Source: Paraspadella gotoi
Taxonomy: Eukaryota > Animalia > Chaetognatha
DNA: 64,000 bases
Reading direction: 5' to 3'
Assembly (NCBI GenBank): GCA_051294375.1
Contig: CM119263.1
Span: forward strand, 29,096,079 to 29,160,078
Positions within the stretch are counted from its first letter, which is position 1. Each line of letters opens with the position of its first letter. This document shows positions 8,218 through 11,200 of the stretch, one piece after another. The notes beneath the pieces are model-generated. The model saw only the letters and a list, made by a program, of their open reading frames with translations, did not search any database and was not told the origin of the DNA. A program made the position numbers and the translations under genes.

Positions 8218-11200
8218 ATGTTTTCAAGAAGAATATTTTTAATAGTGATTATCAAACTATTTCAAACGTGCATGGGGATGGTAGAAATTCAATCGAGATT
8301 GGTGCCTTGTCGAGCAAGCAAAAGTAAATGTTATGTATTGACTTTCAAAACTAGAAACTTTATCTTCTTCACTATCGACTTAAATTTGTATTCAGCCAAA
8401 TTGTCAACTGGATTCGGAATACCTCGATGCAAAAAAAAAATTATATTGGACATAAATGTAAGAATAGATGAAATGATATTAGGTATGACCTTTAGATTTA
8501 TAGTTCTACAATATGAAAGATAATTTCTCATGGAATTGAAGAAACCAAAGATTTTATTTTCCTGGAGATAAATCACGTTCACGTCATGGAGGAACACGTT
8601 AGGTTATTATCAATTTTTTTGGATTTGTATACTATACAGTATGCTGTATACAGTATAGAATAATAGACGTATCTAAAAAGTAAATCGAGAATACTTTTTA
8701 GGAGGAAACTGTTTCTATACCGACCATTGGTTCTAAGATTAAACGTTCATCCGCCAAAAATCTCCTACCCCTTAAGATTCGAAGGCAGGTGGGAAAAAAC
8801 AATTATAAAAAATTAATAGACTAAACATAGTTATTACTAATTACGTAATTAGTAATAATTTGCAATTGCGCTTCAATTCAGCGTCAATTACGAGACAGCC
8901 ATTCGTGCGCTTCTATTGGAGAGGAAACCCAAGGATGTCAGGGGTTGGAAGGAAGATGCGGGTCACGAGTGCAAAAAGATTATCACCTCGTCAATTCACG
9001 AAGTTAGTCATACAGGCATAAGGATGAACGGACAATTTTGAATGACACTAAAAATTACCCAAAAATTGCTTTTTAATCGTTTACGTCCTTATTTTTTATA
9101 CTTTTTTAATACCTTAATTTAAATTTTAAAAATCAAATACGTTATAGTAGAACAAGTAATTTTCAAAGGTCAGAGGACGATCTCCATATTAGTAAATATT
9201 TATTCAGCAAAATCACGCAACGTATCTCATTAAGAATGTAACAAAAAAATGTTTATCCAAATATGTTGTAATAACCTTTTCTCTGTTAATTCTTTCTACT
9301 TACACGATTAATAAAAGCGGAATGTCTCAACCTCTATATCATGGCATCAAGGTTATCTCCCCCCCCCCGCCGCGTCCTTCACACAGAGTTCCCCATCGCT
9401 CATCGGAGGCTTCCGTTGCGAGCGAAGGGAAAGGCAGAAGAGGGAAGCGCCTAGCAAAAAGAAAAAAGAAAGCAAAAAGGGAAAAGACTACAAGCTCGTA
9501 TGCGTGACCACTGACCCAATTTGGTAGGTTATATAACCGCTAATCGGGGAAGGAGAGAGTAACGATTACCTCCGCCCATGACACGCGAGACTTTGCCCAA
9601 TATTCAACTAATCATAACAGCAAACTATAGACGCGGTTGATTTGGAAAAAATCAGTGAATGGGTGCTTGATAACGATTTGGCCTTCGCCCGCCAAAAAAA
9701 GAGCGGTTAATGAAAATCGTGTCTCGAAAAAAAAGTTCGATAAGTCATGTGCCGATGGCATATTTCTTTCTTTTATCGAATTTTTCTTTTCCACTCCTTT
9801 CAATTGGAGGGGGAAAAGGGAAAGTTAGACTGTCAAATGGATTCACAAGTTACGTGTGTTACGAAAGAATTTTAATTAAAATAATATGAATTAATGAATT
9901 TTTGCTTTGCTATAATATAGCCTCTATGCATTTGAACCCCCCTCGAAATTTCAAAATGACCGTTTAATTTCTTTTCCGTCCTTCACTTGACCAAGAATCT
10001 CTCTCTCTCTCTCTCTCTCTCTCTCTCTCTCTCTCTCTCTCTCTCTCTCTCTCTCTCTCTCTCTCTCTCTCTCTCTCTCTCTCTCTCTCTCTCTCTCTCT
10101 CTCTCTCTCTCTTCCTTCCCCCGTCAAACAGGTACAACACCTTTGCCCTTCGTCGCCCACGTCTGCGTCAGACTCTCAGCGTCAGCGTCATCCGACGTCA
10201 ACTGACTGAGTGGAACGACCCTCGAGAGAAAAGTGGAACGAGGCCTAAGGAGAGGGCGCGGTCGTCGCCTCGCCGGAAGTGGGTGGATATCGAGAGAAAA
10301 AGCTTGACCGTCACGAGTCAAAAGACGAACGACGATGACGCCGCGCGCGGGATCTGGCTCAGATACGAAGGCGGGTGGAATATTTTTTGTATTAATATCC
10401 AAATATATTCATAAATTATTATTTTTTTTTTTTTTTTATTAAAGACTTTGTTCACGACCGGTTCGAGTGGCCTTTGAGGGAAGACGATGTATTCTTATTC
10501 ATTCCGCAACCGGGCGTCAATTCCGAATCGTCTCGTTCCATCGCGAAACCCGAACATTTTTTGATCGTTTCTAAAGACCAAGTCGATTTGGGAGGAAACG
10601 GTGACATTTACGGATTTATGGATTCGATTCCGATTCGAAGAATTTTTCTAATCCCTTCACCCACGTCAATCGTCAGATTGCAATCGCATTGGATACCTCC
10701 CTTCGTCTTTGCTGCGAAACTCTTCCAGGTGCAACATATCGTTCGTCGGTTGCGATTTCTTGCAACTCAAGACTCTTTACGACGATTCGTTGATGCTGGT
10801 CTCACCAACTCATTCGCAACCCGACGGTCCGGTCGTCTCATTGGAGATCGTGGACGATTATCACCATCAGGTTACTCGAAGGCACGAAGTGGGTCATTTC
10901 AGGACTGGAGACTTGAGAACGCGAAATGAGCTCTTGGCATCGTTTCTCTTTCCTTTTTGATTACGCCGCTTCCTCTTCCCCCCTTTATCCCCCTCCTACA
11001 ATCTACATACGTCATTTCCTATCAGGCGAGCGCGCCAGTCAACGGCCTGTTACAACGCGTCGGCGTGGTTCCTCGTCATAAAGGAGAGAACGAAGACGAG
11101 AATGACCACGCCCCCTCGTTGCGCGTGGGAATTAAAAACGGGCCGAAGAGAGAGAGCGAGAGAGACGGGGCGAAATCCGGCGGGAAGCGGAAGACGACCG

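Follow-up and report, generated by a model that had tools for sequence, protein, structure and literature searches.

An expressed, correctly spliced animal gene in the chaetognath Paraspadella gotoi encodes a protein which, judged from profile searches and a shared intron position, is a very divergent HAP2/GCS1 homologue. The reading favoured here, held with about even confidence, is of a divergent HAP2 whose tip is of full length with three cysteines and carries a polybasic loop without a nonpolar apex; such a protein is predicted to make contact by charge, and would fuse membranes only with help, or act in adhesion or regulation. The window analysed is a stretch of 64,000 nucleotides (GenBank assembly GCA_051294375.1, contig CM119263.1, positions 29,096,079 to 29,160,078, forward strand), and the coordinates below are those of the window.

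Gene structure and expression

The gene comprises 15 exons, which are listed here with the features of the tip region.

8218..8323, + strand: exon 1, with the start codon and an N-terminus resembling a signal peptide (aa 1-35); RNA piece 8215-8323
8396..8457, + strand: exon 2, start of domain I with the second conserved N-terminal Cys, C47; GT..AG joint 8323 to 8396
8520..8602, + strand: exon 3, from splice sites and joints 8457 to 8520 and 8598(+4) to 8698(+4)
8702..8788, + strand: exon 4, tip-leading strand, Y-P-L-R-F aligned to the canonical Y-P motif; RNA joints
8882..9002, + strand: exon 5, strand b and bc connection; joints 8785(+3) to 8879(+3) and 9002 to 9387
9387..9523, + strand: exon 6, Lys/Arg-rich cd connection to C192; RNA piece 9387-9526
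9420..9500, + strand: polybasic loop (aa 165-191) between C164 (9417-9419) and C192 (9501-9503), from composition
9432..9443, + strand: R-Q-K-R (aa 169-172), convertase-type motif, from a regex scan of the spliced model
9524..10131, + strand: intron 6, phase 2, within a Trp codon (TG/gt...ag/G)
10132..10370, + strand: exon 7, strand d (W-Y-N-T-F) and a charged variable loop; RNA piece 10131-10370
10445..10600, + strand: exon 8, reaches Pfam PF10699 on its own, below cut-off
10677..10870, + strand: exon 9, ij-loop region with C332, C349 and C356, from alignments
11026..11230, + strand: exon 10, charged low-complexity insertion (aa 396-463); joint 10865(+5) to 11021(+5)
11772..11965, + strand: exon 11, frame needs one base missing from the window (3 runs)
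12303..12421, + strand: exon 12, domain III core; joint 11964(+1) to 12302(+1)
12524..12664, + strand: exon 13, domain III and then a Lys-rich stretch; joint 12419(+2) to 12522(+2)
12890..13157, + strand: exon 14, Lys/Arg/Glu-rich, end of domain III and a Cys-rich motif; joint 12663(+1) to 12889(+1)
13592..13911, + strand: exon 15, start from a loose end at 13157 that matches 13592 onward, end inferred

Thirteen exon pieces of a single RNA contig support the gene, with 10 listed GT..AG joints that are absent from the DNA runs X1 and X5. The RNA evidence is one RNA-like run (X9; run type presumed), whose contig, at a depth of 82.8, covers the transcript well and in fully spliced form. The spliced contig (1848 nt) starts at 8215, terminates within exon 13 and carries exons 5, 6 and 7 directly joined. 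It skips the 384 nt from 9002 to 9387 with GT..AG, and the join across intron 6 follows from its loose ends, since 9526 reads into exon 7 and 10131 into exon 6. Read depth of X9 is zero in the intron bins 9060-9379 and 9572-9990, and both DNA runs span the introns without a skip. No sequence difference is listed in exons 5-6 across the three runs, the sole indel listed there being intronic, at 9358.

The reading frame is open across all 15 exons (811 aa), counting two bases that are present in all 3 runs. The window is one base short in exon 11, where an extra C stands behind 11794 in X9 and X5 and an extra T behind 11796 in X1, and the exon 11 frame is open only with the added base. It is also one base short in exon 14, where an extra G stands behind 13084 in 3/3 runs (X9, X5, X1). 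The first 20 residues of the exon 1 product are hydrophobic, and exon 2 aligns with the canonical C-x-K-K motif. Exon 6 breaks off after the second base of the Trp codon of strand d, intron 6 holds a (CT)n run at 9998-10112, and the donor of exon 7 is GC (AAG/gcgggt), with RNA resuming at 10448 and 3 contig letters between. The joint of exons 13 and 14 has a depth of 46.6 and a shorter side of 29. The exon 15 product is acidic and Gly-rich and then runs into a poly-Lys tail, with the stop at 13909-13911. Elsewhere, a kinase exon neighbours the HAP2-like gene, and Rfam and tRNA scans of the window found none.

Relationship to HAP2

Canonical HAP2 genes for comparison (L-numbered loci) were taken from metagenomes. 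A profile of three of these (L004, L017 and L028, each matching PF10699 at E 1e-94 to 1e-114) matched the spliced protein at E 1.8e-12 and 43.2 bits in two collinear domains, and matched 0/2000 shuffles. When L004 was run with phmmer against the spliced model together with 2000 shuffles, only the model was reported (E 3.2e-8, collinear, 65-379 against 46-361). L004 itself reaches Pfam PF10699 at E 2.9e-94, and the solved HAP2 structures that it matches are 5ow4 (T. cruzi; the top match, E 1.2e-72), 7s0k, 6dbs, 6e18, 5mf1 (Chlamydomonas) and 5ow3 (Arabidopsis). As a single query against the spliced model, L017 gave no match. Domain III is covered by the second of the two collinear domains of the profile (385-462 against aa 513-588), which is weak alone at 8.9 bits and a domain E of 0.045, and scores 0.2 bits with L004 as query. 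A tip-only canonical profile ranked the model best of 2001, at 9.2 bits and E 0.16, and with one shuffle at 8.0 bits this was too weak to be used as evidence of homology.

Gene structure points the same way. The phase-2 intron in the strand-d Trp codon occurs at the identical place and phase in 4/4 HAP2 loci of plant type in which both exons are present (L029, L025, L020, L012), and the same intron 6 donor is found in L002. An intron between strands c and d is given as common HAP2 gene structure in the S6 Fig legend of Fedry 2018. The profile match, with no shuffle matching, and the Trp-codon intron identical to that of plants together show the HAP2 homology that the preliminary description had proposed. 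The class II fold is probably kept.

Searches with individual exons recovered little. None of the 15 exon peptides, scanned singly, reached the PF10699 gathering score of 27.4 bits, and exon 8 was the sole match (1/15; 15.5-16.2 bits, E 0.0042-0.0065, profile positions 231-267 of 515). Pfam gave 0/2 for exon 1 with its in-frame intron and exon 2, and found no HAP2 with exon 9 alone. A word-index search of exons 7, 8 and 9 against longer proteins returned nothing. A full HMMER search of 1.84 billion representatives with exon 9 found no HAP2, no PF10699 protein and no orthologue, its 5 matches (E up to 0.001) all being bacterial repeat proteins with 3-14 repeated stretches each. P0001, P0002, P0003 and P0005 were rejected as relatives on account of a bacterial CHU_C secretion domain (Pfam), accompanied in three by PKD-type or SprB repeats, and P0004 on account of merely scattered Pfam fragment matches. 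LRR clusters of the ESM Atlas obtained from exon 9 were taken as noise. Exons 5, 6, 7, 8 and 9 found no HAP2 among solved structures, and the matches of exon 6 to two ribosomal proteins (E 0.68 and 0.91) were dismissed as chance.

The domain II tip

The tip was compared with those of 7 canonical HAP2 sequences, the plant exons being aligned as joined tips. From the strand-b motif to the strand-d Trp it measures 85 residues, against 66-83 in the canonical set; it thus has its canonical length, and nothing is therefore missing. Before strand d, K-G-K is followed after 5 residues by Cys and after 6 more by Trp, exactly as in plants. Within this span only three cysteines stand (143, 164 and 192), against 7, 7, 7, 7, 7, 7 and 9. 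According to section 6 and S1 Table of Fedry 2018, seven Cys, one Glu and one Arg are invariant across 38 HAP2 sequences, three hexapods included; four of the seven invariant b-c-d cysteines are lost here. The first canonical tip Cys is replaced by W134/K135 in alignments of exon 5, which contains V-N-Y-E117, K-P-K-D130 and E-D-A-G-H-E-C143, and in exon 6 G-F-R-C164-E-R stands in place of G-F-C-C-x-C. The equivalence of C164 depends on the method, since it falls on the second Cys of the C-C pair in the L004 alignment and on the third Cys of the cluster in the plant-tip alignment. The six remaining cysteines of the tip and ij loop (143, 164, 192, 332, 349, 356) would pair among themselves.

Both HMMER and MAFFT assign the conserved strand-b Glu to E117 of V-N-Y-E, at the price of a deletion that removes the three residues K-P-x, and the spacing from the Y-P motif to E117 equals that in L004 and L017. 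Global alignment to a plant tip instead pairs K-P-K-D130 with K-P-Q-E. R169 lies opposite the cd-loop Arg of plants (R163) in an ungapped part of the alignment, with R167, K171 and R172 beside it. A basic residue such as R169 may stand for the cd-loop Arg, and replacement of that Arg by Lys is tolerated in Chlamydomonas (Fedry 2017). E117 or D130, with R169 or a neighbour, would continue to hold the loop against strand b. The ij loop retains three cysteines (332, 349, 356) and C-N-R-I-G, and N345 occupies the position of the conserved Gln in alignments, so that the canonical signature is broken; the role of this strictly conserved residue (Q379) is treated in Fedry 2017. N345 lies within one of the only two N-x-S/T sequons of the protein.

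The polybasic loop is predicted, from sequence alignment alone, to lie at the membrane-facing apex. Its 27 residues between C164 and C192 include 13 Lys/Arg, against 19% protein-wide (binomial P 5.7e-4), and the cd connection before strand d holds 12 K+R in 25 residues and a net charge of +8, whereas the net charge of the 7 canonical sequences runs from -1 to +5. The charge is real, yet not unique to the tip: 26 of the 785 windows of 27 aa, in three regions, equal or exceed the Lys/Arg level of the loop, and at least four further Lys/Arg-rich stretches occur in other loops, at aa 226-250, 431-450, 591-640 and 776-795. Nonpolar residues are missing where plant, kinetoplastid-type and another protist HAP2 carry them. 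No I, L, M, F, W or V occurs between E165 and K189, and the only nonpolar residues of the loop (Y188, L190 and V191) adjoin C192. The best 7-residue Wimley-White interfacial window scores +1.79 kcal/mol, against -2.25 to +0.95 in canonical tips, and the helical hydrophobic moment is low over aa 162-193 (0.14-0.27). In 3/3 co-optimal alignments to the Arabidopsis-like L029, the fusion-helix residues I171, F172, M175 and I176 of plants face Lys, Glu, Ser or a gap; the function of these nonpolar residues is described in Fedry 2018.

The account of the tip given in the preliminary description fares unevenly against these data. Its exon 5 and exon 6 peptides are reproduced exactly by translating 8883-9002 and 9387-9521, and the loss of most tip cysteines (3 against 7-9) and the lack of a visible hydrophobic loop (the nonpolar insertion positions being Lys, Glu, Ser or a gap, at +1.79 kcal/mol) are both borne out. 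That the tip is Lys/Arg-rich holds for the loop (13/27), and this level is not peculiar to the tip, 26/785 windows in three regions reaching it. The statement that the Glu of P-x-E is absent is not supported, as an acidic residue aligns there either way, be it E117 (HMMER, MAFFT) or D130 (global alignment).

Membrane anchor and C-terminus

No hydrophobic 19-mer or transmembrane segment occurs in frame up to the stop at 13911, and AATAAA signals follow just past the stop, at 13932 and 13960. A protein without an anchor could not fuse membranes by itself. Farther downstream, near 15284-15400, a + strand frame holds a good candidate transmembrane segment, the exons there joining in frame among themselves. 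These His-rich/TM exons (14276-15412) are not linked by RNA to the present transcript; splice pairs compatible with them run from 13616 or 13667 to 14329, and from 13719, 13785 or 13908 to 14276.

Function and alternative explanations

The lack of greasy residues at the tip makes contact by charge likely, or may mean no unaided fusion. On the favoured reading the loop would be flexible, binding anionic lipids or an acidic partner on the egg surface. Its contact with the partner membrane, or with an acidic protein there, would be electrostatic and would involve no insertion. The protein would need help to fuse membranes, or would serve adhesion or regulation.

That the odd tip is a gene-model artefact, with a functional isoform using another exon or a canonical HAP2 at another locus, is very improbable. 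RNA contigs drop rare variants, the RNA comes from one RNA-like run, and a second HAP2 gene of canonical form may lie elsewhere in the genome, which leaves such a reading some room, but the RNA joins exons 5-6-7 directly with both introns at zero depth and leaves no missing exon between them; plants share the exon 6/7 boundary, which is the ancestral one, and the tip already has its canonical length. Among the frame-keeping, stop-free AG..GT cassettes (8 in intron 5 and 7 in intron 6), 0/15 carry more than one Cys. An additional exon in 9003-9386 or 9524-10131, as considered in the preliminary description, is thus excluded for the transcript seen, and the artefact reading is largely refuted for this locus. 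It is also improbable, if less so, that the polybasic loop is a processing site, cut in furin fashion at R-Q-K-R172 into two disulfide-held chains with a freed tip, priming the fusogen. R-Q-K-R stands inside the C164-C192 loop, and the protein has no other strict R-x-[KR]-R; nevertheless, such a motif is expected by chance because 13 of 27 residues are Lys or Arg, no nonpolar segment that might act as a fusion peptide lies beside the putative cut, the C164-C192 disulfide on which the scheme depends is itself only putative, and processing of this kind is absent from the portions of the HAP2 literature examined.

A more serious, though still somewhat unlikely, possibility is a HAP2 derivative that is no longer fusogenic: either a secreted or peripheral gamete adhesion or regulatory protein, or a drifting transcribed gene under relaxed constraint. 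This would account for the loss of 4/7 invariant tip cysteines together with any nonpolar insertion element, for the exchange of the ij-loop Gln for an Asn in a sequon, for an RNA-supported frame that holds no transmembrane segment and ends directly before polyadenylation signals at stop 13911, for charged low complexity throughout the protein, and for the lack of an exon 9 orthologue among 1.84 billion representatives, where the 5 matches were bacterial repeat proteins. The charge of the tip may likewise merely reflect protein-wide drift and not a selected function. Against a loss of activity, the frame of 15 exons and 811 aa is open with two added bases, the transcript is fully spliced at a contig depth of 82.8, domain III is retained along with the scaffold motifs and the distances between them, and the candidate transmembrane segment at about 15284-15400 leaves the C-terminus unsettled. 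At the other extreme, the protein might be a class II gamete fusogen that dispenses with hydrophobic insertion, its tip, of full length but poor in disulfides, forming a flexible polybasic loop, possibly cut at R-Q-K-R, which captures the egg membrane through anionic lipids or an acidic receptor; charge-based docking and trimer fold-back would drive fusion, or HAP2 would have become a species-specific adhesion arm. This reading is unlikely.

Comparison with known systems and significance

The divergent HAP2 favoured here resembles canonical HAP2 in a collinear homology that starts at the N-terminal Cys pair and takes in domain II, the ij loop and domain III, and in its b-to-d length. It shares with plant HAP2 the K-G-K/Cys/Trp spacing and the phase-2 intron of the strand-d Trp codon. 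Unlike canonical HAP2, it has 3 tip cysteines, a loop apex without nonpolar residues and a net charge of +8, a strand b in which K-P-x is deleted or its Glu exchanged for Asp, Asn345 for the ij-loop Gln, several long charged insertions, exon peptides below the Pfam cut-off and no anchor in the RNA-supported frame.

HAP2 of Apis and Drosophila was reportedly described by Liu et al. in 2015. Divergent HAP2-related genes are present in Apis, Tribolium and Pediculus, with a 66-residue insertion in loop 1 of the Tribolium protein and a large unique insertion in that of Pediculus (Steele and Dana 2009, PMC2766252). The Apis and Drosophila forms are given as lacking the Pfam motif in the S5 Fig legend of Fedry 2018, and Drosophila CG34027 is presented as a divergent HAP2-related gene in the portion of a preprint that deals with it (bioRxiv 10.1101/379800). 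By description, the present protein is like these arthropod forms in being an animal HAP2 relative beyond the reach of the Pfam model, with lineage-specific insertions. The hexapods Tribolium, Acyrthosiphon and Orchesella are among the 38 sequences, from four eukaryotic kingdoms, aligned on nine invariant residues in the relevant part of Fedry 2018; unlike those hexapods, again by description, the chaetognath protein is missing four of the nine.

EFF-1 and AFF-1, the somatic fusogens of nematodes, have the class II fold, carry no hydrophobic fusion loop and work from both of the fusing membranes. The present protein is like them in being of the fusexin type without a nonpolar tip, and by analogy a bilateral, trans-trimerising action is a possible mode; unlike theirs, its tip is strongly basic. 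To our knowledge, HAP2 in every studied case inserts nonpolar tip residues into the partner membrane, from a tip held in place by the invariant cysteines, Glu and Arg, and its role in animals beyond cnidarians is essentially untested. As far as the pertinent text of Fedry 2018 extends, HAP2 acts from one gamete in all tested species.

The locus can be regarded as a natural experiment, in which the scaffold is kept and the insertion element is swapped for a Lys/Arg-rich loop, and which poses the question whether a class II cell fusogen can do without insertion. It bears on HAP2 function in animals, and offers liposome, cell-fusion and fertility assays a defined protein to work on. Should that protein turn out anchorless or inactive, the gene would be a record of the decay or re-use of a gamete fusogen in an animal lineage.

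Gene structure and splicing

A search of sequencing runs for the window returned nine runs from three studies, all labelled as one organism. One of them (X9) is marked as possibly RNA and was compared with the DNA runs X1 and X5 on both sides of the (CT)n repeat at 9998-10112. An X9 contig of 1848 nt maps to the window in 13 pieces with GT..AG skips, including 9002 to 9387; the loose end at 9526 continues into the beginning of exon 7, and the one at 10131 into the last part of exon 6. The introns are covered by X1 and X5, neither of which contains any of the X9 skips, indicating that X9 represents a spliced transcript with exon 5 joined directly to exon 6 and exon 6 to exon 7; X9 depth is absent in bins within introns 5 and 6. 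The resulting multi-exon gene lies on the plus strand at 8218-13911.

Exons of the HAP2 gene (all plus strand)
Exons 1-5: 8218-8323, 8396-8457, 8520-8602, 8702-8788, 8882-9002; X9 contig, splice sites
Exons 6-10: 9387-9523, 10132-10370, 10445-10600, 10677-10870, 11026-11230; X9 contig, splice sites
Exons 11-15: 11772-11965, 12303-12421, 12524-12664, 12890-13157, 13592 onward; RNA contigs, splice sites

Both tip-encoding exons, 5 and 6, are flanked by AG and GT. Translation of 8883-9002 gives V-N-Y-E-T-A-I-R...H-E-C-K-K...I-H-E and that of 9387-9521 gives S-S-P-S-L-I-G-G-F-R-C-E-R-R-E-R-Q-K-R-E-A-P-S-K-K-K-K-E-S-K-K-G-K-D-Y-K-L-V-C-V-T-T-D-P-I, identical to the peptides quoted in the preliminary description. 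Frame-keeping, stop-free AG..GT cassettes number eight in intron 5 and seven in intron 6, and none holds more than one Cys. An additional exon restoring the Cys pattern, which that description had named as what would refute it, is absent from the observed transcript, and the direct 5-6-7 join and the cassette scan together argue against a missed exon in the transcript seen, to which contig-level data confine this verdict since a rare isoform may escape contigs. Exon 7 closes with a GC donor (AAG/gcgggt), and the join across the 74-nt intron 7 (10371-10444, 16% G+C) is backed by an RNA contig, with three contig letters unplaced beside a T-run. Long (CT)n microsatellites lie within intron 6 (9998-10112) and intron 10 (11700-11770).

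As given in the window, the HAP2 frame is broken twice, at 11794-11796 and 13084. Relative to the window, all three runs (X9, X1 and X5) carry one extra base in exon 11, near 11794-11796, and another in exon 14, behind 13084, and addition of one unspecified base at both gaps yields an open frame of 811 residues with a stop at 13909-13911, so that the breaks look like assembly error rather than a pseudogene. AATAAA signals follow the stop at 13932 and 13960. A G>T difference at 13088 is also common to the three runs.

The neighbouring genes show ordinary animal gene content, indicating an animal genome; an arthropod is no more than a guess, prompted by short AT-rich introns and (CT)n repeats. 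The GRK-type kinase gene and the HAP2 gene are arranged head to head, and N runs occur at 18668-18677, 42022-42046 and 42142-42371.

Neighbouring features of the window
2782-5946, minus: gene for a GRK-type kinase with a 445-aa exon; domains RGS, protein kinase and PH
46108-46407, minus: SNF-family transporter exons
48744-51051, plus: PP5-type phosphatase exons (TPR, PPP5, metallophosphatase)
56824-57132, minus: IBR-domain ligase exons
59499-59900, minus: DDE_3 (mariner/Tc1-like) transposase remnant, 134-aa open frame, Pfam E 8e-12
61114-61521, plus: EGF-module protein exons

Identity as a HAP2 homologue

Taken exon by exon, the evidence for HAP2 is thin. Exon 8 alone reaches Pfam PF10699 (E 0.004-0.0065; 15.5-16.2 bits against a cut-off of 27.4), corresponding to one of ten peptides in one Pfam scan and one of 15 in another; HAP2 was not found among solved structures with exons 5-9 as queries, and word-index protein searches for relatives of exons 7, 8 and 9 found nothing. 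With exon 9 as query, full HMMER gave five proteins only, none of them HAP2, four with bacterial secretion or repeat domains and one with fragment matches only. These are regarded as false matches, as are the leucine-rich repeat clusters of the ESM Atlas for this exon (10679-10870), which sequence tools take for a leucine-rich or Cys-containing repeat.

Canonical HAP2 sequences were obtained by scanning metagenome contigs with a degenerate DNA motif built from two short HAP2 motifs, and 34 of the 35 loci found are HAP2 exons or whole genes by translation. Four loci contain long intron-free reading frames: L004 matches PF10699 at E 2.9e-94, with T. cruzi HAP2 (5ow4, E 1.2e-72) as best solved match, and L017, L028 and L013 match PF10699 at E 1e-114 to 6e-87. 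Several further loci are plant HAP2 genes, including L029, in which the letters of the seven numbered Arabidopsis residues named in Fedry 2018 (E117, R163, I171, F172, D173, M175 and I176) fit by counting. With L035, five intron-free genes are usable as reference sequences.

Metagenomic HAP2 genes of canonical type without introns (the last four from one AT-rich eukaryote)
L004:3792-7202, minus: kinetoplastid-like; T. cruzi HAP2 is the best solved match
L017:1207-3069, minus: AT-rich eukaryote
L028:186-2012, plus: AT-rich eukaryote
L035:2906-4768, minus: AT-rich eukaryote
L013:1-1341, plus: AT-rich eukaryote

When L004 was used as a phmmer query against the spliced model and 2000 shuffles, the model alone was reported (E 3.2e-8), in a single collinear alignment of 65-379 with 46-361 of the model; L017 alone against the same set reported nothing. 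A profile of L004, L017 and L028 matched the model at E 1.8e-12 (43.2 bits) in two collinear domains, of which the second is domain III, and matched 0 of 2000 shuffles. Moreover, intron 6 interrupts the strand-d Trp codon behind its second base (TG/gt...ag/G, phase 2), a place and phase identical in all four plant loci holding both exons (L029, L025, L020 and L012), with an identical donor in a further locus, L002. The occurrence of this intron before F-H-V-F in flowering plants and in an animal gene implies a very old position. Profile homology and the Trp-codon intron show a HAP2 homologue with the ancestral exon 6/7 boundary.

Composition of the tip

In Fedry 2018, 38 HAP2 sequences, three of them from hexapods (S1 Table), were aligned on nine invariant b-c-d residues: seven Cys together with the strand-b Glu and the cd-connection Arg. 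Between the strand-b motif and the Trp of strand d, seven canonical sequences hold 7, 7, 7, 7, 7, 7 and 9 Cys; the canonical stretch measures 66-83 residues, one exon having been omitted from the three shortest sequences. The window protein has three Cys (143, 164 and 192) in 85 residues, a length indicating that the tip is neither collapsed nor expanded, but recomposed. In the alignments, the first canonical tip Cys falls at W134/K135, G-F-C-C-x-C becomes G-F-R-C-E-R and the cd-connection Cys is lost.

From the last cluster Cys position to C192 there are 25 residues, against 26 in plants and 29-30 in protists, and this cd connection holds 12 Lys/Arg and 4 Asp/Glu, giving a net charge of +8 against -1 to +5 in canonical HAP2. 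Its only large nonpolar residues are Y188, L190 and V191, adjoining C192 where strand d starts; the best seven-residue Wimley-White window scores +1.79 kcal/mol against -2.25 to +0.95 for the canonical sequences, and the helical hydrophobic moment is low along the whole cd loop. The spacing of K-G-K, five residues, Cys, six residues and Trp equals that of plants, and all three co-optimal global alignments to L029 place Lys, Glu, Ser or a gap opposite the four nonpolar positions in the fusion helix of the plant protein. A triple mutant of plant fusion-helix nonpolar residues loses function (Fedry 2018).

Lys/Arg-rich low complexity also occurs at residues 226-250, 431-450, 591-640 and 776-795, and 26 of 785 windows of 27 residues, in three regions of the protein, hold at least 13 Lys/Arg. 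The 226-250 stretch and that of exon 10 fall at long insertions of L004 itself in the profile alignment; variable loops of this kind are described for Chlamydomonas HAP2 (Baquero 2019). The tip is unlike these charged stretches in that a segment of conserved length has changed composition without insertion.

The supporting network

The conserved Glu aligns with E117 of V-N-Y-E, with K-P-x deleted, in HMMER with two queries and in MAFFT, and E117 follows the upstream Y-P motif at the same 11-residue distance as in L004 and L017. Against the plant tip, Needleman-Wunsch alignment favours matching K-P-Q-E to K-P-K-D130. By either alignment an acidic residue is present. Plant R163 lies opposite R169 in an ungapped part of the alignment, with further basic residues adjoining R169. 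In Chlamydomonas, the cd-loop Arg tolerates change to Lys but not to Ala or Gln, and the third network partner is a strictly conserved ij-loop Gln, Q379 (Fedry 2017). This position is N345 in both the L004 phmmer and three-sequence profile alignments, within an N-x-S/T sequon, of which the protein has just two. The supporting network of the tip is thus altered, though not demonstrably lost. The three tip Cys and three ij-loop Cys make an even six, which would permit three disulfides.

The observation of a charged, Cys-poor HAP2 tip is confirmed. The preliminary interpretation is supported in part: HAP2 identity stands on the profile match and the Trp-codon intron, the missing Cys and lack of a hydrophobic loop on the counts, Wimley-White windows and L029 alignments, and no missed exon appears in the transcript seen; the claimed absence of the PxE Glu is wrong or unproven, E117 or D130 aligning in its place.

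Mode of action

Divergent arthropod HAP2-related genes have been on record since 2008-2009 (Steele and Dana 2009, PMC2766252). Forms without the Pfam motif occur in Apis and Drosophila (Fedry 2018, S5 legend; bioRxiv 10.1101/379800), and loop 1 of Tribolium HAP2 carries 66 inserted residues (Fedry 2018). That study emphasises diversification of insertion motifs, but the plant amphipathic helix and the small trypanosome loops described there are both nonpolar. In the passages covered of the HAP2, GCS1 and fusexin literature on insects and other arthropods, neither a polybasic-tip HAP2 without nonpolar residues nor a functional test of insect HAP2 was found.

Domain III is followed by a Cys-rich motif and then by an acidic, a Gly-rich and a poly-Lys stretch before the frame stops at 13911, and no hydrophobic 19-mer was found in the HAP2 frame after domain III up to that point. 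The sole convincing downstream plus-strand transmembrane segment lies at approximately 15284-15400. Candidate plus-strand exons at 14276/14329-14592 and approximately 15026-15412 join each other in frame and encode a His/Asp-rich stretch that ends with a clear transmembrane segment; they may represent either the C-terminus of HAP2 or a small gene of their own. A second RNA contig extends 1419 nt past 13157.

A protein ending at 13911 would be anchorless, which would argue against autonomous fusion. Loss of fusogenic function, with adhesion, regulation or drift remaining, is considered rather unlikely. It is improbable that R-Q-K-R in the loop is a convertase cleavage site priming the loop: no other strict R-x-[KR]-R motif occurs in the protein, but one is expected by chance given the Lys/Arg-rich composition. 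A gene-model artefact, which the joining of exons 5-7 in the transcript speaks against, or a canonical paralogue elsewhere is given very little weight.

Polybasic docking is taken as the most likely explanation, with about an even chance of being correct as a whole. Its component on identity and anatomy, a HAP2 homologue with a polybasic tip, is held with high confidence; the mode of action, docking by charge without insertion, is tentative and falls somewhat short of an even chance. The class II scaffold would be retained, with the cd connection forming, at the end that faces the membrane, a polybasic loop of flexible character. Unable to insert, this loop would attach to anionic lipids or to an acidic partner, and fusion, if any, would require such docking together with trimer fold-back, or else a partner protein.
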